Part shown: one piece after another, positions 3,629-16,040 of the stretch
Numbering within the stretch: the stretch's first letter is position 1
How the letters are laid out: every line of letters begins with the position of its first letter
NCBI GenBank assembly: GCA_022570885.1
Contig: JACZYW010000001.1
Location: forward strand, 1-41,424
DNA length: 41,424 bases
Direction: 5' to 3'
DNA from: Chloroflexota bacterium
GTDB taxonomy: Bacteria; Chloroflexota; Dehalococcoidia; DSTF01; RBG-16-68-14
The notes under the pieces: model-generated
What the model was told of the DNA's origin: nothing
The model's database searches: none
What the model saw: only the letters and a program-made list of their open reading frames with translations
Translations under genes and position numbers: made by a program

Positions 3629-4684
3629 TTAGCTCTGCTGGCTCAGCCGCCGGCGCCAGTAGCCCAGCCCGATCAGGCCCATCCCTAGGCTGGCCAACGT
3701 AACGACGAAGCTGAAGAGCGAGCCAATGCCACCTGGCAGAGGGAACCCGCCACCCGTTTCCGGCGGCCCCTTCACCGCTGGCCCCGGCGTCGCGGTCGGG
3801 TCTGCCACCGTTGGCTCCGGCGTCGCGGATGGCCCGATCACCGTCGGCAGAATCTCGGACGTGGGCGTCGTTTCAGGAGCTGTCGTGGTAGGTGTCGCCT
3901 CAGTCGGCGTGGCCGTGGGCAGTGGCGGCGTGGCCGTGGGCGGCGTAGCCGTGGGCGGTGGCGGCGTAGCCGTGGGCGGTGGCGGCGTGGCCGTGGGTGG
4001 TGGCGGCGTGGCCGTGGGCGGTGGCGGCGTGGCCGTGGGCGGTGGCGGCGTGGCCGTGGGCGGTGGCGGCGTGGCCGCGGGTGATAGCGGTGTGGCCGCG
4101 GGTGGTGGCGGCGTGGCCGTGGGCGGTGGCGGCGTGGCCGTGGGCGGTGGCGGCGTGGCCGTGGGCGAGACGCCGCACGGAGGGAAGCTTTCCGATCTCT
4201 CCGGGTTCAAGTCCGGCCGCTGGCTGGTGTCGACTTCAACTCGAATGGAGTTGGCGTCCGGACTGACGCCGGCGCTGCTGAGCGGGCCGTATAAGAGGAC
4301 GACGCTTTCCCCAGGATCCAGGGTGACATTGACTGCAACGGAGGCGCCGGTCGTAAGGAAGAAGGGGCTGCCTCCGAGGGCGGGTGGGATGTGCTGCGCG
4401 AGTACCAGCGGTATCTGGTCCGATACCTGATCCTGCGTCCGGTTCGCCACGGTGATGGTGCCGCTTACACTCCCGTCGGGCGCACAGGTGGCTGTGATCG
4501 ACACGATCTCCACTGGCCCGAAGGGTTGCCCCGCGGTGGATGAGCTTCTCATCAGAGCGACGCCGATGGTGACGAAGGTTGCCAGACACAGGAGCGCCGT
4601 GAGCAGGCCTAAGAGCACGGTGAGCGGGAAAGACCCTGCCGGTGAAGCTTTCCGCCGTTGTCGGTAATGTATCGACCCAGACAT
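3629..4684 (-). CDS. membrane/cell-surface protein with TATPPPP tandem repeats and a sortase-signal-like C-terminus
   Basis: 351 aa. N-terminal TM/signal-anchor FPLTVLLGLLTALLCLATFVTIGVAL, a globular part, then about 11 TATPPPP heptads. The C-terminus reads GPPETGGG + hydrophobic segment (IGSLFSFVVTLASLGMGLIGLGYW) + RRRL. SD GGGGGA lies upstream of the ATG. Confidence 0.7.
   Translation of the reverse strand: MSGSIHYRQRRKASPAGSFPLTVLLGLLTALLCLATFVTIGVALMRSSSTAGQPFGPVEIVSITATCAPDGSVSGTITVANRTQDQVSDQIPLVLAQHIPPALGGSPFFLTTGASVAVNVTLDPGESVVLLYGPLSSAGVSPDANSIRVEVDTSQRPDLNPERSESFPPCGVSPTATPPPPTATPPPPTATPPPPAATPLSPAATPPPPTATPPPPTATPPPPTATPPPPTATPPPPTATPPPPTATPPTATPPLPTATPTEATPTTTAPETTPTSEILPTVIGPSATPEPTVADPTATPGPAVKGPPETGGGFPLPGGIGSLFSFVVTLASLGMGLIGLGYWRRRLSQQS
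3906..4166. repeat. 21-bp in-frame tandem repeat (about 12 copies) encoding TATPPPP
   Basis: The unit GCCGTGGGCGGTGGCGGCGTG is reiterated with few substitutions. It lies inside CDS 3629-4684 and generates spurious ORFs in several frames. Confidence 0.9.
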
Positions 4685-4929
4685 ACCGATGTCCCCCTAT
4701 ACCCTGAGCACCACCCTCATAATGAGGGTCTAGCCCACGCCGCTTGAAGCAGCTATGGGCGTCGTATCAAGGCGGGGTATGTCACGTCTAGGCGGGGATG
4801 CCTACAGTATCTTTACATCTTCGAACGCGGTATAGCAACGGTCGTTACAGGTAAAGGGAAAGTTGCGCAGGGCGCCCGCGTGGGTCTAGTGCGGCCTAGA
4901 TTGGGTTAGTGCGTCGGCACTGGTTGGCG

Positions 4930-6213
4930 CTACTCGACGAGCACCACATCCGGGGCTTCGAAAGTGCGGAACTCTCCATACGTGAGGTCGAGGGGCGAGT
5001 TGCCGGATAGTTGAAAGCCGTTCACGATGAGCTGCACCGTGCCGAATTGAGAGTCGCCACTGATGTCTAACGTGGCCCCCGGCGCGTAGAAGATGCCGCT
5101 GATCAGATCGTTGCTCCCACGCATCTTAAAGTCAGCGGTGATCGCTTCGTCCTGCCAGAGGGTGATGCCTTCATAGGGGCCGGAGGTGGGCGGAGACAAG
5201 TCCATAGCGCCGGAACCCGTCAGGTCGAACGGCTTGGGCGCGCCATCTCCCGTGGGATTGGTCGGATTTTCCGTGACGTAGATCATGACTCCGTCGCCAA
5301 CAAAGCTCGCACCGCCTGCCTTGGAGAAGCCACCGCCGGCCATGATATAGATGCCGGGCTGGAGCGTGATGGTACAGGTGCAGTTGGAGTAGAAGCCGCC
5401 GTAGTACGTGCCGGGATACAGCGTGAAGTCTCCGCCGCTAGTGACGGTCCACGTATCGGGGTTCACGGCGGTACCGGAGGATCCCGGCGCTGGCGACCCC
5501 AGCGAGGGCGGTGACAGGCTCGCCAGCGGGTCGCTGACCGTCCAAGACACACTATTCGGCTCCGGGCTGATAGTGCCCGAACCGCCGACGTCGTATCCGC
5601 CGTACACGTCAATACTGCCTTCCACGATGAGGTCGCCGGCGCCGGTCTTGCTCAGAGCGTCGGATGGGCAGCTAGAGTTGACCATGACGCCGCCCCCGGC
5701 GATCGTCAGGCTGGCATTCCCTTGCTGTCTGAAAGATTGGCAATCGTCCGGGTCCAGCACAACCAGAGCATACGGTTCTGGGAAGAGGGGGAAGCCGGCC
5801 ACCCCGCGTGCCTGCACCGTCGAGCCGCCTGGTATCAAGACATGGATGAAGAACGTCGGCGGTTGCTCGGAGACGATCACCTCCACGTAGAGTGGATCGC
5901 CAACATGCGCGCCTGAAGTGGGTGGGATGTTGACCGTAACCGTGCTGGAGCCGCCGCTGTTGTCGAAGCCGTTCTCGTCTGCGTATGCCAGCGCCGTGGT
6001 GGTGGCATCGGCAACGCTGCGGCCGTTGAACAGCTCGTAGGTTGCGGCGAGCGCCGCCTCGTCGGCAGCGTTCTGCGCCTGGCGATGCTCCGCGTAGAGA
6101 TAACCGACGTCGATGACAAGTCCAGTGAAGGCGAGGAGGGCGACGATCACGAATGCCGAGAGCACAAGTATCTGCCCTCGTTCGTCCCGTAGCGTTCGTA
6201 GATTGCGCTTCAT
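4930..6213 (-). CDS. TadG-like pseudopilin / Flp-pilus-assembly TadE/G-like N-terminal domain protein
   Basis: 427 aa. The N-terminus RDERGQILVLSAFVIVALLAFTGLVIDVGYLYAEHRQAQNAADEAALAA is typical of the TadG-like N-terminal domain. The remainder is G/S/T-rich and beta-rich. SD GAGGAG precedes the ATG. Confidence 0.72.
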   Translation of the reverse strand: MKRNLRTLRDERGQILVLSAFVIVALLAFTGLVIDVGYLYAEHRQAQNAADEAALAATYELFNGRSVADATTTALAYADENGFDNSGGSSTVTVNIPPTSGAHVGDPLYVEVIVSEQPPTFFIHVLIPGGSTVQARGVAGFPLFPEPYALVVLDPDDCQSFRQQGNASLTIAGGGVMVNSSCPSDALSKTGAGDLIVEGSIDVYGGYDVGGSGTISPEPNSVSWTVSDPLASLSPPSLGSPAPGSSGTAVNPDTWTVTSGGDFTLYPGTYYGGFYSNCTCTITLQPGIYIMAGGGFSKAGGASFVGDGVMIYVTENPTNPTGDGAPKPFDLTGSGAMDLSPPTSGPYEGITLWQDEAITADFKMRGSNDLISGIFYAPGATLDISGDSQFGTVQLIVNGFQLSGNSPLDLTYGEFRTFEAPDVVLVE

Positions 6214-6232: not shown

Positions 6233-6682
6233 CTAATTAGCGATCGCCATGGTCGACGAGCTGGACATGTCGAACTCGAGTATCCCGAACATGTTGAAGA
6301 TAGGCGTGTACGTGTATTGAGAGGACACCGTGACTCGGTTGCCCTTCTCGTTGGTGCCGTCGATCCAGGTGGTTTCCACCGTCAACTGCAAAGTGTTCAG
6401 TGAGCCGGCATGGTTCTCAACCACCTGGGAAACCTGCGTATCGCTGTTCGGGGACGTGTAATAGCTGCTGCCCGGCCCGCTGGGATCCGAGGAGTCGGCG
6501 CCGTGGACGATCGCGTAGCGAGTGCCCTCTCGCGTCGCCTCGGCCAGCGCGTTGTAGTGCCAGACGGCGCGGCCGATGTCGATCATGCCGAAGACCAGCA
6601 TGAAGAAGATAAGCGAGATCAGTGCGAACTCCGTCAACGCTTGGCCGCCCTCGCCCCGTTTGGCAACGCGGAACCGCCTCAT
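6233..6682 (-). CDS. TadE-like pseudopilin
   Basis: GQALTEFALISLIFFMLVFGMIDIGR matches the prepilin-like G/xxxxEF motif plus hydrophobic helix. The start is taken at the internal ATG 6682, which overlaps the upstream stop as ATGA. The track ORF extends to 6742. Confidence 0.72.
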   Translation of the reverse strand: MRRFRVAKRGEGGQALTEFALISLIFFMLVFGMIDIGRAVWHYNALAEATREGTRYAIVHGADSSDPSGPGSSYYTSPNSDTQVSQVVENHAGSLNTLQLTVETTWIDGTNEKGNRVTVSSQYTYTPIFNMFGILEFDMSSSSTMAIAN

Positions 6683-7143
6683 TCCCTGACCCTCGCTGTC
6701 ACCGTACGGGCGACATCTATCGATTCTGGTATGCCCGGCCAAGGGAAGAGCATGTTGAAGGTGTAGGTCACGGTCACATCAACGCGGCGATGGTCCGGGC
6801 CGAACCACCCATCGGTGGTCACGGAAACGGCTGGGTTGGTCGGTGAAAGGTTGAGCAGGTCACTGGTGTCTGCGACGACAGCGTTCCTGATGCCGTCCTC
6901 GTCGCAAGAGACGGCGCAGTTACGGGCTGCGTAGTCCGCGCCGGTGCGGGCGCTGTTTGTCACCGATACGTATGCGAAGTAGACTCGCCCGAAGTCGATG
7001 GCGCCCAGGACCAGGAGTATGAGTACGGGCAACATCAGCCCGAACTCCACCAGGCTCTGGCCGCGCTTATCGCCGATAAGCCGTCGCAGCGATCTCCGGT
7101 GCCGCTTGCCCTGGGCTGCCTGCGATGATTCCTGCATGCTCAT
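6679..7143 (-). CDS. TadE-like pseudopilin
   Basis: 154 aa. GQSLVEFGLMLPVLILLVLGAIDFGRVYFAY matches the TadE N-terminal motif. SD GGAGGG is 5 nt upstream of the ATG. Confidence 0.72.
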   Translation of the reverse strand: MSMQESSQAAQGKRHRRSLRRLIGDKRGQSLVEFGLMLPVLILLVLGAIDFGRVYFAYVSVTNSARTGADYAARNCAVSCDEDGIRNAVVADTSDLLNLSPTNPAVSVTTDGWFGPDHRRVDVTVTYTFNMLFPWPGIPESIDVARTVTARVRE

Positions 7144-7209
7144 GTGCCCTCCGGTGGCAATGCCCCTAGCCCACCGCCCTCGAGCCTGCGTGTGGGCCGA
7201 AGGCTCCGA

Positions 7210-7303
7210 AGAGGTCCGGCAGCCCGGCTGTCCTCTTCCCGTATAGGTGGTGGACCCGTGGCTTTGCGTCCCCGGCTCTCGCCGGGTTTGCCCTGTTCGG
7301 AGT
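7210..7303 (-). promoter_or_regulatory. c-di-GMP-I (GEMM) riboswitch aptamer in the 5' leader of the tadE-like operon
   Basis: The minus strand reads CUCCGAACAGGGCAAACC-CGGC-GAGA-GCCG-GGGACGCAAAGCC-ACGGGUCC...GGACAGCCGGGCUGCCGGA. The blocks ACAGGGCAAACC and GGGACGCAAAGCC are identical to my recollection of the Vibrio Vc2 aptamer. There is a 4-bp helix with a GNRA loop, and the second helix has an AG bulge. The aptamer ends 70 nt before ATG 7143. Confidence 0.85.
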
Positions 7304-7452
7304 CATCTATCCGGTTTTAAGGCGGAACCCCTAGGGGGCTCACCACAGTCATCATCGACCATCCAGCGAAAATCCTTAGCCGTCTTACGTAGCCCAACAC
7401 GCTCGCTACCCTCGATAGATGCTATTATGACTACTAAATATGGGGAGATTGG

Positions 7453-7481
7453 TTGACAGATACAACATCTTGTGCTATCGT
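7453..7481 (+). promoter_or_regulatory. candidate nrdR promoter with an NrdR-box-like palindrome in the spacer
   Basis: TTGACA (7453-7458), 17 nt, TATCGT (7476-7481). The spacer holds ATACAACATCTTGTGC (7460-7475), a 12/16 match to the remembered NrdR-box consensus acaCwAtATaTwGtgt. A weaker CTAAATATGG half-match is centred about 29 bp upstream. Confidence 0.45.
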
Positions 7482-11996: not shown

Positions 11997-12272
11997 CTAG
12001 CGCAGCGACGGGGGTTGCCAGTGCCAACTGGGGGGCGAAGAGGGAGCGCCGTTGGCGCCTCCGCGGAGCCATCGCCGCGTCCGCTCGCGGAAGGGGGGCG
12101 ACGGCGCGACCGATAGGGGAAGGCTTGGGATCAGTCGAGCTACCTCTAACAGCGCCTCGAGCTCTGCTCGGTGAGCTGGGTAGCGCTCAAGGCAGGCCTG
12201 CACCTCGGTCTCGCCCTGCCGCAGCGCCTCCAGGCACTCGGCCAGCGCCCTGACGATCTCCTCCTCAGCCAT
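11997..12272 (-). CDS. short anti-sigma-factor-like protein (possibly truncated)
   Basis: Start at ATG 12272 overlaps the sigma gene stop by 8 nt. MAEEEIVRALAECLEALRQGETEVQACLERYPAHRAELEALLEVARL resembles the N-terminal helix pair found downstream of ECF sigmas. There is no TM or extracytoplasmic domain, and the tail is P/S-rich. Confidence 0.5.
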   Translation of the reverse strand: MAEEEIVRALAECLEALRQGETEVQACLERYPAHRAELEALLEVARLIPSLPLSVAPSPPFRERTRRWLRGGANGAPSSPPSWHWQPPSLR

Positions 12273-12852
12273 TGGCCGCCAACTCCGTCGCACCTTCGGC
12301 TTTCAGCTGCTTGCGCAGCGCGTTCAGCGCTCGGTGCTGGATGACGCGCACCGCCGCCACGCTCTTCCCAAGGATCTCCGCCACCTCGCGATACTCCAGG
12401 TCTTCCACAAAGCGCAGGATAATCACCTTGCGGTGCTCGTCTCGCAGCTTCAGGATCGCGTCGTGCACGCGTTCGCTGTTCAACCGCTGATCAAGAGCCG
12501 CCTCCGGATTTTGCAGGCGGCTGTGGTCTATCAGCGTCTCCGGAAGCTCCGCGTTCTGTTTTCGGGAGCGCAGGTAGCTCACGCCCAGGTTGTGGGCAAT
12601 GCGAAGCAGCCAGGAGACGAAGGGCGCGGCCCGCGGCTGATATCGAGGGATGGCTTGCCAAGCCTGGAGGAAGGCCTGCGCCGTGAGATCTTCCGCCTCG
12701 GCTGGGTTCCCTACCATATAGTAGATGTGACGATACACTCGCACCACATGCCGATCGTAGAGCGCGCCGAATGCCGCTTGGTCACGGGCGATAGCCCGCA
12801 GCACCAGGGTGCGCTCGTCTACTTCTTCCTGCGGGGCAATGGACTTGAGCAT
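12265..12852 (-). CDS. ECF-type RNA polymerase sigma-70 family factor
   Basis: Region 2 (YRHIYYMVGNPAEAEDLTAQAFLQAW) and region 4 HTH (YREVAEILGKSVAAVRVIQHRALNALR). Start chosen at ATG 12852; the track ORF opens at 12930. Confidence 0.9.
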   Translation of the reverse strand: MLKSIAPQEEVDERTLVLRAIARDQAAFGALYDRHVVRVYRHIYYMVGNPAEAEDLTAQAFLQAWQAIPRYQPRAAPFVSWLLRIAHNLGVSYLRSRKQNAELPETLIDHSRLQNPEAALDQRLNSERVHDAILKLRDEHRKVIILRFVEDLEYREVAEILGKSVAAVRVIQHRALNALRKQLKAEGATELAANG

Positions 12853-12871
12853 TGTCCTACTCGATCTTCGA

Positions 12872-12897
12872 AACGGGATGGCCCGGCAAACGTTACC
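12872..12897 (-). promoter_or_regulatory. candidate ECF-type (autoregulatory) promoter
   Basis: The minus strand reads GGTAAC-N16-CGTTT, ending about 20 nt upstream of the sigma ATG. This matches the generic ECF pattern G(G/T)AAC-N16/17-CGT. Confidence 0.3.
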
Positions 12898-12985
12898 GGC
12901 CTCGCTCAGGAGACTGCCTAAGCTGTGCAAAAGCCTTCTATATCGTTAGGATCGGCAGATTCGGAGGCGAACGAGAGGGGTGTCC

Positions 12986-15175
12986 TTATGCCGCGGGCTC
13001 TGCTGCCTCAGCCGGCTTAGAGCCGCCGTCTCCCTGATCGTCGCTCTCTGCCGGAGCTTCGTCCGACGGTTGCTCGTAGGAGTCACGGAGAATGTTGGGG
13101 ATCTGCTCCTGGTCCGAGCCTTCTGCTGCAGCCACCGTCTCCGTAGCGTCCAACTCGAACAGAAACGTCCAGGAGCCGACCGTGAACGTCTCGCCGGAAT
13201 CCAGGATCAGCCAGCTACCGGGCATCGACCCGCTGGTGCTCAACCGTTGCAGCTCGTGCACCATGAGCTTTCCATCTCGGACCCAGACTCTCGCCCACTC
13301 CGGAACGATCTCCTCGTCTCCATCTTTCTCGGGAAGCTTGATGAGACAGCGATAGCCGGAGCCGATGCTGGCGGCCGCGTCGCTCACCGGGAACGCCTGG
13401 CCCTGGAGCGAGCCGCTGGTGACCATCAGGCGGCCCAGCGGCTTGTTGGTGAGGACCGGCGTCGCCGGCGGCGGTTCGTCGCCCCAAAGCGGCCGAGGCG
13501 TAGGATTCTTGTTCCATCCGCCTGTGACGATGGGCCCGGGCGACGGGCCTTGTGGCGCATCCGGGTCGGGCTCTCCCTCGTCGCTGCGCCGCCGCCGCAG
13601 CAGGTAGCGCACGAAGAGCGCCCCGCCCACGCCCGCGACCACGATCAGCCCGGCCGCGATGAGAAGGCTTAGGCTCATCGTCTCGCCTTCGCTCGTGCGC
13701 ACCGTTACCGCGGCCGTGGCTGTTAAGCCGGCGTCGGTGACAACCTCAACTTGGAGCGTGTGCTCTCCACCCGCTGAGGAGGCTGGGTCGAAGCTGAACT
13801 CGTAAGGTGGCTCGGTGAGCTCTAGCACGGACTCGCCGTCCACCAGGAAGGTGACGCTGCTGATGGGATCGAGCGATTCGATCTCGGCGGTCACGGTGCG
13901 CGTTTCAGTGAGCTGCTCGTCGGAGGTCACGCCGCTTAATGTGACCGACGGTGCGGCTGGCGGGCCGGTGCGCACCAGCACCGCCGTTGACGTTGCCGTC
14001 CGCCCGGTGGTGGTGGCCACCGTTACCTGGAGCGAGTGCTCGCCGTCGCTGACGAGCGCCGGGTCGAACGTGAACTGGTAGGGCGGCTCAGTGAGCTGTA
14101 GCACCGCTTCGCCGTTCACTAGGAAGGTGACGCTGCTGATGGGATCGGCCGAGACGATCTGGGCGATCACGATGCGCGCGCCCTCTAGCCGCTCGCCTGG
14201 CTCCACCGCGCTCAGCGTCACGATCGGCCCCCGGGGCTCGAACGTGCGCTCGCCACTGCCCGTCAGCTCGCCTGTGGTCACGTCCACGCGGAGGGTGACC
14301 GCCTGCGATTCGTCCAGGGTGATCCCGGTCGTGTCTAGCGTGAGGATGTACTGGCCTCGCAGCAGCTCAGCCGCTTCCGCATAGAGCTGGGCCAGCCCCT
14401 GCGGCGATGGTGTCTCTGCGAACCGGCCGCCGCTTCCCTGGGCCAGCTCCTGAAGGTACGCGCGGTCGATGCCAGTACCGAGCCCGATGGCGAACACCGG
14501 CACGCCCAGCGTCTGAGCTGTCGTGAGGGCGTCGGCGCGCGAGAGCAGACTGCCGTCGTCGACGCCGTCGGTCAACAGCACCACCGTCAGGCGGCTGTTG
14601 CCGGAGTCGGCCGCCAGCCGGACGCTCGCGACCGTCGCGTCGTATAGCGCTGTATTGCCGCTCGCGACGAGGCCATCGATCGCAGCGCCTGCCGCTGCTC
14701 TGTCCGTCGTGAACGCCAAGAGCGGCGCCACAGTATCGGCGAAGGCGACGATAGCGACGGTGTCCTGTGGCCCAAGGTCGTCCAGGAAGCGATGGGCGGC
14801 TGTCTTCGCCTGGGTCAAGGCGCCACCGGCCATGCTGCCGCTTACGTCCAGCGCCAGCACGACGGCGATGCCCAAGCTGCTGTCTACGCCGCGGGTGACC
14901 GCGCTTACCGGCACGGCGGCGCCGTTGAGGTTGGCCTGGAACTGCTCAGCCGTTAGGTCGGCCAGCGGGCGGCCGTCGCTCGCCAGCACCGTCACCACCG
15001 CTTGCGCCTGCGAAGATTCGTCTGTGGTGAAGCTGGCCACCTCTACCGTCAGCGTCTCTTCCTGCGCGAGCCCGGCTACCGGCGAAAGCAACAGCGTCGC
15101 TAAGGCCAGGAGCAGCCATATCAGGTGGCTCCAGCGCAGACGTGACTTCAGTTCACGCTGCCGTCGATGTAACAC
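12986..15175 (-). CDS. secreted vWA domain - 2x Ig-like repeat - TM - cytoplasmic FHA domain protein
   Basis: 729 aa, GTG start with SD GGAGGG. Signal peptide LIWLLLALATLLLSPVAGLAQE. vWA MIDAS motif LALDVSGSM. Two roughly 90-aa paralogous repeats (...DPISSVTFLV(N/D)GE(A/S)VL(Q/E)LTEPPY(Q/E)F(T/S)FDP...). TM LLIAAGLIVVAGVGGALFV + RYLLRRRR. FHA-like C-terminus (LGRLMV..G...G..F.....SIGSG..C.I.L....VS..HA-like pattern). Confidence 0.85.
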   Translation of the reverse strand: MLHRRQRELKSRLRWSHLIWLLLALATLLLSPVAGLAQEETLTVEVASFTTDESSQAQAVVTVLASDGRPLADLTAEQFQANLNGAAVPVSAVTRGVDSSLGIAVVLALDVSGSMAGGALTQAKTAAHRFLDDLGPQDTVAIVAFADTVAPLLAFTTDRAAAGAAIDGLVASGNTALYDATVASVRLAADSGNSRLTVVLLTDGVDDGSLLSRADALTTAQTLGVPVFAIGLGTGIDRAYLQELAQGSGGRFAETPSPQGLAQLYAEAAELLRGQYILTLDTTGITLDESQAVTLRVDVTTGELTGSGERTFEPRGPIVTLSAVEPGERLEGARIVIAQIVSADPISSVTFLVNGEAVLQLTEPPYQFTFDPALVSDGEHSLQVTVATTTGRTATSTAVLVRTGPPAAPSVTLSGVTSDEQLTETRTVTAEIESLDPISSVTFLVDGESVLELTEPPYEFSFDPASSAGGEHTLQVEVVTDAGLTATAAVTVRTSEGETMSLSLLIAAGLIVVAGVGGALFVRYLLRRRRSDEGEPDPDAPQGPSPGPIVTGGWNKNPTPRPLWGDEPPPATPVLTNKPLGRLMVTSGSLQGQAFPVSDAAASIGSGYRCLIKLPEKDGDEEIVPEWARVWVRDGKLMVHELQRLSTSGSMPGSWLILDSGETFTVGSWTFLFELDATETVAAAEGSDQEQIPNILRDSYEQPSDEAPAESDDQGDGGSKPAEAAEPAA

Positions 15176-15562: not shown

Positions 15563-15684
15563 CCTCCGATAAAGGCGCGGCGCGGGAAACCGCGTTTGGC
15601 CGAAAGGCCCCCGGCGATTCGTCCGGGCGCAAAGCTTCGGGTCTACTCCCCGCGAGGGGAACGACAGCCGAGCTGCCGAAGAGG
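15563..15684 (+). promoter_or_regulatory. divergent GEMM (c-di-GMP-I)-like riboswitch candidate
   Basis: The 3' half CGCAAAGCUUCGGGUC-...-GACAGCCGAGCUGCCGAAG matches the 7210-7303 element (ACGCAAAGCCACGGGUCC-...-GGACAGCCGGGCUGCCGGA), including the AG bulge and compensatory helix changes. Both share the 5' CUCCGA. The first helix is replaced by three hairpins, two with GAAA loops. CCGAA (15676-80) can alternatively pair with UUCGG (15690-94), which overlaps the SD GGAGG. Confidence 0.5.
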
Positions 15685-15704: not shown

Positions 15705-16040
15705 ATGAAGCGGACATTAGCACGAGCCAGCTGCGCCGGTCTCCTGGCTGTTCTTCTCTCCACAGGCACTGGACTTGTCATCCTCGGGTTCGCGTTCGTC
15801 CCCACGAGCGAGACCACCAGCGTCTCCCTGGCGGCGACAGCGACTCCCACCTACGTCTCTGAGTTAGCGCCGGCTGTGGTGGTGCAGCCGCGCCAGGCCG
15901 CTGCCCTGCCCGATTCCGGCGCCGGCCCGAACCTCGGCGCGGCCAACCCGCTGCCCCGGGCGGCCGGCTTTGCGCTCTTGCTGCTGGGCGGCCTGCTGAT
16001 ACGTACTGGCCTCGCCTGGCGCTCCAGCACGAACCGCTAG
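15705..16040 (+). CDS. small secreted protein with an LPxTG-like (LPDSG) C-terminal signal
   Basis: 111 aa. SD GGAGG is 7 nt upstream. Signal peptide LARASCAGLLAVLLSTGTGLVILGFA. The C-terminus is LPDSGAG...FALLLLGGLLI + RTGLAWRSSTNR. Confidence 0.6.
   Translation: MKRTLARASCAGLLAVLLSTGTGLVILGFAFVPTSETTSVSLAATATPTYVSELAPAVVVQPRQAAALPDSGAGPNLGAANPLPRAAGFALLLLGGLLIRTGLAWRSSTNR

Follow-up and report, generated by a model that had tools for sequence, protein, structure and literature searches.

A class I cyclic di-GMP riboswitch aptamer ahead of tadE-tadE-tadG-like genes in an uncultured Dehalococcoidia bacterium, with a proposed OFF relay

Does an RNA sensor of the second messenger cyclic di-GMP (c-di-GMP) govern a set of Tad-type pseudopilin genes in an uncultured bacterium, and would it switch them on or off? 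The question is raised by contig JACZYW010000001.1, of which we analysed a stretch of 41,424 nucleotides (hereafter the window, or 41-kb window). The contig comes from an uncultured member of the Dehalococcoidia (Chloroflexi). On the minus strand of the window, a short RNA element precedes three genes resembling tadE, tadE and tadG. An initial annotation, made from the letters alone, had read the interval 7204-7306 as a canonical c-di-GMP-I leader element, and direct reading of the minus strand returns exactly the letters quoted there. According to sequence models, the segment 7214-7301(-) is almost certainly a complete class I c-di-GMP (GEMM-I) riboswitch aptamer. With modest confidence, we favour the view that it belongs to a functional class I c-di-GMP riboswitch in the leader of a tadE-tadE-tadG-like operon, working through an OFF relay.

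The aptamer and its ligand pocket

We scanned the whole window against Rfam at gathering thresholds, reporting for each site only the top-scoring member of a clan. Two members of the c-di-GMP-I clan were found, one at 7214-7301(-) and one at 15596-15680(+). The first is a full-length match to RF03167 (c-di-GMP-I-GGC, model positions 1-80), which scores 75.9 bits (cut-off 59) with E = 2.1e-16. Because the clan filter keeps the best model, the score of RF01051 at this site was masked in the whole-window scan. RF03167 was still the best model after trimming of the P1 5' strand (65.4 bits), and it fell below its cut-off when both P1 strands were trimmed and the P2-P3 core (7221-7293) was scanned alone. 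The core matched RF01051 at 7221-7291 with 52.4 bits against a cut-off of 35 (E = 2.5e-10), in keeping with the class proposed by the initial annotation. A purpose-built covariance model, R1, gives the window aptamer 97.9 bits.

The predicted fold comprises three helices. P1 joins UCCG (7301-7298) to CGGA (7218-7215) by 4 bp, P2 (7291-7266) has six pairs (CCCGGC/GCCGGG) under a GAGA loop (7280-7277), and P3 (7263-7221) contains an AG bulge at 7229-7228. The GNRA cap and the AG bulge had both been foreseen, but the capped helix had been described as 4 bp long and in fact has six pairs. RNAalifold on homologous copies returns the same P1/P2/P3 fold. In an alignment of 12 copies, which was fitted to a model and is hence biased towards the structure, 94.8% of the cells are paired, 10 of the 26 pairs are altered on both sides, and none of 500 shuffles matches these values; when the 3' partners are shifted by 1-3 columns, pairing drops to 25-50%.

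The model alignments locate every base of the canonical pocket in the window RNA: G20 at 7292, A47 at 7265, C92 at 7219, C44 at 7268 and G83 at 7228, which bears out the reading of the element as a canonical member of its class. In Vc2, the aptamer of the Vibrio cholerae tfoY leader, G20, A47 and C92 are the ligand contacts (PMC4744006, PMC11705072), and C44-G83 is an inter-helix pair that joins the GAC-bulge C to the AG-bulge G (PMC4744006). Both C44 and G83 are identical in every copy, so no covariation is possible at this pair. The junction and P2-flank blocks of the window are identical in letters to the Rfam consensus. The P3 receptor region, by comparison, reads UCCAC.../...AGAGGA against a model consensus of CUAAG/UAUG and is not the canonical 11-nt motif, and two distal P3 pairs are flagged as non-standard in the RF01051 core alignment. 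The GAGA tetraloop and the altered receptor (UCCAC/AGAGGA; 7277-7280 and 7230-7255) occur together in the window and in one related locus, L096, whereas other relatives pair a GAAA tetraloop with a CUAC/AUA[CG]G receptor; tetraloop and receptor may have changed together in these two loci.

Chloroflexi/Dehalococcoidia metagenome bins are the source of the TadG-like homologues. The combination of aptamer and tad genes is seen again in at least 12 related Dehalococcoidia/Chloroflexi loci, often likewise between nrdR and ftsZ. The aptamer lies directly 5' of TadE- or TadG-like genes in L001, L003, L005/6, L008, L009/10, L014, L015, L016, L018, L096 and L099. In L005/6, L009/10, L096 and L099 it is flanked by a divergent nrdR on one side and by the first tad-like gene on the other, and ftsZ-ftsA follows past the cluster in L005 and L009 as well. 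Two aptamers, each before a separate TadG/TadE unit, are present in L008 (1294-1382 and 2929-3017), L014 (1063-1152 and 5825-5915) and L099 (871-957 and 2390-2480). These paired arrays differ in their expression platforms: L008 and L014b have large GC hairpins, L099a a Shine-Dalgarno (SD) sequence inside P1.

The arrangement is not universal. No aptamer was found in L002, L004, L007 and L011, nor in the nrdR-tadE-syntenic loci L012/L013 (intergenic region 4884-5114) and L098 (2848-3057); in some close lineages the riboswitch was lost or never gained. A profile search of genome contigs with the TadG alignment yielded 4 loci. A metagenome search with the TadE alignment yielded 80, of which the two closest carry the aptamer and the other 78 lack it. 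The association between aptamer and tad genes is therefore lineage-specific and not a general property of TadE genes.

The leader RNA and the direction of switching

As stated in the initial annotation, the aptamer ends 70 nt before ATG 7143, the start codon of the first tad-like gene. Judged from the sequence, it very probably controls the tad genes in cis. The 5' strand of P1 is contained in element 1, CUCCGAA (7302-7296), together with two junction A's. This strand has two possible 3' partners, as had been noticed earlier, namely the proximal CGGA (7218-7215) and the distal UUCGGAG (7210-7204), which we term element 4. The latter forms the conserved part of the switch strand CUCUUCGGAG (7213-7204), where it follows a linker that varies among the leaders in both sequence and length (CCUC, CCCC, UCGU, GCCAGC, CCUGA, ACCC). 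UUCGGAG itself is the perfect complement of CUCCGAA and is invariant in eight of eight leaders of this platform type, so the alternative partner from which a switch had been suspected is a conserved feature. The duplex of elements 1 and 4 (1:4) has 7 bp and a free energy of -10.7 kcal/mol in the window (-10 to -11 kcal/mol across the leaders), and it appears in the unconstrained minimum-free-energy fold of five of the eight.

Downstream of UUCGGAG come CCUUCGG and a GC-rich hairpin, GGCCCAC-A-CGC ... GCG-GUGGGCU (7198-7168), which is kept in all eight leaders, with A-U exchanged for U-G or G-U in some. The 3' flank of the hairpin is UAGGGGCAUUGCC in the window, UUUUUU in L003 and a U-rich tract in L018 and L009. 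Reading of the sequence places the SD region CCGGAGGG at 7154-7147, with the core GGAGGG at 7152-7147. An alternative start of the first gene, ATG 7137, has a better spacing to the SD than ATG 7143.

In the reading that we favour, CUCCGAA (7302-7296) would pair in the absence of ligand with the distal UUCGGAG (7210-7204), gaining 7 bp against the 4 bp of P1. The SD would then be comparatively open and the genes would be translated. Binding of c-di-GMP would close the proximal P1 (UCCG/CGGA), and the freed strand CUCUUCGG (7213-7206) would reach past the constitutive GC-rich hairpin to pair with CCGGAGGG (7154-7147), masking the SD. With the SD masked in the bound state, high c-di-GMP would thus lower the output of pseudopilins.

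Folding calculations are consistent with such a relay. With the aptamer enforced, CUCUUCGG pairs with CCGGAGGG in the window fold, and the mean unpaired probability of the SD is 0.16, as against 0.34-0.38 otherwise. In the window, the 1:4 state is favoured by about 8 kcal/mol over the aptamer-enforced state, a gap that ligand binding is expected to cover. Relatives with a minimal platform, L016 (GCCGGAGCGCGAUG) and L099a, hold the SD inside the P1 3' strand, the classical OFF design. The relay also has a precedent in Vc2, for which it was proposed that the P1 strand pairs with a downstream element at low c-di-GMP, whereas in the presence of ligand an anti-ribosome-binding site (anti-RBS) masks the distant ribosome-binding site (RBS) and turns expression OFF (bioRxiv 10.1101/617340); the platform proposed for the window follows the same logic. 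We favour the OFF sign because of the SD masking with the aptamer enforced, the relatives with the SD in P1 and the tfoY precedent. We nevertheless put OFF control through SD masking at about even odds.

Several observations weigh against the relay. The duplex between strand 4 and the SD has a free energy of -11.9 kcal/mol in the window, which does not exceed chance in so GC-rich an RNA, 16% of shuffled targets being as good. The downstream partner of strand 4 varies among the leaders: L003 and L099b offer a copy of GCUCCG[AG]A, and in L009, L005 and L018 none is evident. Elements 1 and 4 are invariant, leaving the 1:4 helix without covariation support, and the unconstrained minimum-energy fold of the window disrupts P3 through GAAGAGG:CCUCUUC. 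The predicted change in SD exposure is only some two-fold at equilibrium. Finally, high c-di-GMP commonly favours attachment, and repression of adhesive-pilus parts would run counter to this tendency.

The strongest alternative is the same aptamer with the opposite sign, which we regard as possible but rather unlikely. As an ON switch, strand 4 would be held by the P1 5' strand in the absence of ligand, only the weak 6-bp pairing GCCUUC:GAGGGC would compete, and the GC-rich hairpin would form, acting as a terminator in the relatives with a U-tract. Upon ligand binding, the freed strand would extend an alternative hairpin of CCUCUUCGGAGCCU with AGGCUCGAGGGCGG, the first to form co-transcriptionally, which would block the GC-rich hairpin and permit read-through or translation. 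Activation of this kind would agree with the usual link between c-di-GMP and adhesion. In transcripts cut after the hairpin, the hairpin forms with a probability of 0.87-1.0 when 1:4 is enforced, and with 0.0 in the window, 0.27 in L099b, 0.66 in L009 and 0.72 in L018 when P1 is enforced; the alternative hairpin is also the minimum-energy fold of the window tail (-18.4 kcal/mol). A further point in favour comes from L003, where an 11-bp stem runs into U6 and makes a textbook terminator that requires some kind of antitermination. However, the hairpin probability stays at or above 0.88 in both states in four of the eight leaders (L096, L005, L003 and L014a), and in the full-length leader with the aptamer enforced the fold that masks the SD is the more stable one. 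The hairpin has no U-tract in either the window or its closest relative L096, and no minus-strand terminator was called in the window leader. L016 and L099a, with the SD inside P1, point to OFF.

Three other devices were considered and rejected. Against a simple intrinsic terminator in the window stands the lack of a U-tract after the hairpin 7198-7168. The 4-nt linker CCUC was dismissed as the sole mask of the SD because it is not conserved, and a pseudoknot that would unite GCCGGA:UUCGGC with the 1:4 helix was set aside by loop-length reasoning.

Upstream of the aptamer, a candidate promoter extends from 7379 to 7351 (-), with a -35-like CTAAGG (7379-7374), a 17-nt spacer and a -10-like GATGAT (7356-7351). 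A GATGAT/GATACT box about 55 nt 5' of P1, with a TTAAAG/TCAAAG/CTAAGG box 17-18 nt farther 5', is kept in L009, L005, L008a/b, L014a/b, L018, L016 and L096. The boxes match the sigma-70 consensus weakly, were not flagged by the promoter scan, and are at best a candidate for a weak promoter. Between them and P1, a hairpin read by eye, GAGCCCC-CUA-GGGGUUC (7341-7325, minus strand), is present in seven of nine aligned leaders, and its middle pairs vary on both sides (GAG:UUC, UAAA:UUUA, GGA:UCU). RNAalifold found no consensus structure upstream of the aptamer in the mixed alignment because two of the loci lack the hairpin. From its sequence and position, the hairpin probably forms the stem-loop at the 5' end of the mRNA, the proposed start of which lies near 7345. 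A conserved CGAAUAG lies between it and P1.

Variant class and look-alike readings

RF03167 describes the c-di-GMP-I-GGC variants, where 'GGC' appears, from the consensus lines of the two models, to denote the bases at positions 20/47/92. Like the window RNA, these variants combine short P1 and P3 helices with a 6-bp P2 capped by a GNRA loop. They differ in a consensus G at the A47-equivalent position, at which the window and every relative examined (all 16 related aptamers collected) carry A. Because the Dehalococcoidia aptamers score best on RF03167 and yet keep A47, they might form a canonical-pocket sister lineage of the variant. Coupled with this idea is a second one, that the tad modules are a c-di-GMP-repressed, swappable pilus-tip or adhesin cassette in which the choice among paralogues is made at the RNA level; it draws on the lack of nearby assembly genes, the separate riboswitch for each TadG paralogue in several arrays, and the fixed position of several clusters between ftsZ and nrdR. 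We consider this combined proposal improbable. If true, it would offer a natural A47/G47 pair for finding out what the variant senses.

It is much less probable still that the window RNA itself belongs to the variant class and perhaps senses a ligand other than c-di-GMP. RF03167 is indeed the best model not only for the window but also for eight homologous copies, and remains so after loss of the P1 5' strand. However, the consensus lines of RF03167 and RF01051 differ at a single core position (GACGC-G-AAGCC against GACGC-A-AAGCC), and at that column the window, GACGCAAAGCC, mismatches the variant consensus, GACGCGAAGCC, in the RF03167 alignment itself; G20 and C92 are canonical too. With the diagnostic G absent and A47 present, the window RNA therefore belongs to the parent class by pocket composition. 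The higher score of RF03167 probably stems from its modelling of P1 and the short P3. The aptamers of L003, L005, L006, L008, L009, L010 and L014 are likewise labelled RF03167 despite their canonical A. This constitutes an annotation pitfall, as Rfam clan competition would have automated pipelines mislabel these RNAs as the 'GGC' variant.

The riboswitches for cyclic GMP-AMP (c-GAMP; GEMM-Ib) carry A at position 20. This class was ruled out for the window RNA, in which position 20 is the G in ACAGGGC.

That the element is a decayed or chance look-alike without regulatory role is scarcely credible: the irregular distal P3 with its two flagged pairs, the departure of the tetraloop receptor from the 11-nt motif and the dispensability of the aptamer in some lineages, as in the syntenic L012/L013 and L098, are set against an E-value of 2.1e-16 in a 41-kb window, a pocket with every base intact, and the conservation of sequence and position, with compensatory changes, across relatives whose TadG-like proteins are 40-82% identical.

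The Tad-type genes and the place of the switch among known systems

The names given to the three genes in the initial annotation agree with Pfam, in which all three score above the cut-offs. The first tadE-like gene (6679-7143, minus strand) encodes 154 residues with a PF07811 match of 55.9 bits and a prepilin-type motif, RG/QSLVEF, and was aligned with homologues. The second (6233-6682, minus strand; 149 residues from ATG 6682; PF07811, 51.8 bits) overlaps the stop codon of the first as ATGA, as read from the sequence. The third (4930-6213, minus strand) encodes a TadG-like large pseudopilin of 427 residues (PF13400, 50.9 bits). The translations of both TadE-like genes contain G/QxxxEF prepilin-type motifs. 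The AlphaFold model of the TadG-like protein (mean predicted local distance difference test score, pLDDT, of 90.5) has a helix at residues 11-62, after which beta strands form a beta-solenoid. Its best fold match in the PDB is ComZ (6qvi), a competence minor pilin from Thermus thermophilus, a weak match with E = 8.5e-4 and a template modelling (TM) score of 0.19; ComZ likewise joins a pilin helix to a beta-solenoid. Beta-helix proteins and tapirin adhesins follow among the fold matches. When PDB sequences were searched with profiles of TadE and TadG, no significant match emerged.

Because of their Tad-type domains, the prepilin motifs and the helix-plus-solenoid model, the three proteins look like a minor-pilin or tip module. 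At their N-termini they have the same TadE (PF07811) and Tad (PF13400) domains as the TadE, TadF and TadG pseudopilins of Tad/Flp pili. In contrast to Tad/Flp pilus loci, the cluster sits between ftsZ and nrdR without assembly genes nearby. None of flp, tadV, rcpA/cpaC, tadA/cpaF, tadB and tadC was found among the scanned open reading frames (ORFs) of the window, within which the earlier description of the set as an orphan thus holds. Tad assembly genes were not seen in the related loci either. On one side the cluster is flanked by ftsA-ftsZ, and on the other by nrdR and a class II ribonucleotide reductase.

A fourth gene may close the tad unit, although its membership is uncertain. This ORF (3629-4684, minus strand) lies on the same strand as the tad genes after a gap of 245 nt, in which no minus-strand terminator was called. 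It encodes about 14 tandem ATPPPPT-type Pro/Thr repeats ahead of a C-terminal PPETGGG, which is followed by a hydrophobic stretch and a basic tail (RRR). The product has no Pfam or NCBIfam match, and its sequence suggests a protein anchored at the cell surface and bearing a sortase-like sorting signal. L097 has a gene in the corresponding place, but homology between the two was rejected upon comparison.

In front of nrdR, a promoter-like site on the plus strand (TTGACA, 17 nt, TATCGT; 7450-7481) overlaps a partial palindrome, CACAAGATGTTGT, and sequences resembling this palindrome occur in L017, L098 and L012. It may be an NrdR box for autoregulation. Elsewhere, the window encodes an extracytoplasmic function (ECF) sigma factor, a VWA/Ig protein, a STAND-like ATPase, a CAP-domain protein and a ribosomal protein supercluster.

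The second c-di-GMP-I aptamer of the window (15596-15680, plus strand) matches RF01051 with 49.1 bits and lies 24 nt ahead of an ORF of 111 codons (15705-16040, plus strand). The encoded protein has a signal peptide and a C-terminal LPDSG followed by a hydrophobic segment and basic residues, and matches no family. The P1 3' strand of this aptamer, CGAAGA, can pair with UCUUCG just 5' of the AUG, enclosing the SD GGAGGA, so the sign of the second switch may differ from that of the first. Divergent from it, the ECF-type sigma factor gene adjoins the gene for a 729-residue VWA and bacterial-Ig protein (12265-15175, minus strand).

Among known switches, Vc2 is the closest point of comparison. It belongs to the same aptamer class as the window RNA and has the same G20/A47/C92 and C44-G83 bases, while host phylum and target genes differ. 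The window aptamer, known from sequence alone, is set apart by its 4-bp P1, GAGA tetraloop and non-canonical P3 receptor, and its leader by the GC-rich hairpin between the anti-RBS and the RBS.

Second-messenger-sensing leader RNAs directly 5' of genes for surface appendages or adhesins, as in the window, also have parallels. In C. difficile, a class II switch precedes pilA1, and the Bc riboswitches of Bacillus thuringiensis control pili or adhesins. In V. cholerae, Vc1 is an ON switch ahead of the adhesin gene gbpA, and the class I switches of C. difficile are mainly OFF (bioRxiv 10.1101/617340). The pilA1, gbpA and Bc switches are mostly ON and in part class II, whereas the window switch is predicted to be OFF; unlike in those cases, its targets are Tad-type minor pilins without assembly machinery nearby. 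What is new here are details, which do not amount to a new kind of system: the genes targeted, the lineage of the host, and the fact that tad-like arrays use the switch repeatedly.

Knowledge of the riboswitch class itself is unchanged. The finding places RNA-read c-di-GMP signalling in an uncultured Dehalococcoidia lineage and ties it to Tad-type minor pilins, the regulation of which has been unstudied. The compact, conserved platform, composed of an alternative P1 partner, a hairpin and an SD sequence and available in natural variants, is suited to testing the relay model proposed for Vc2.

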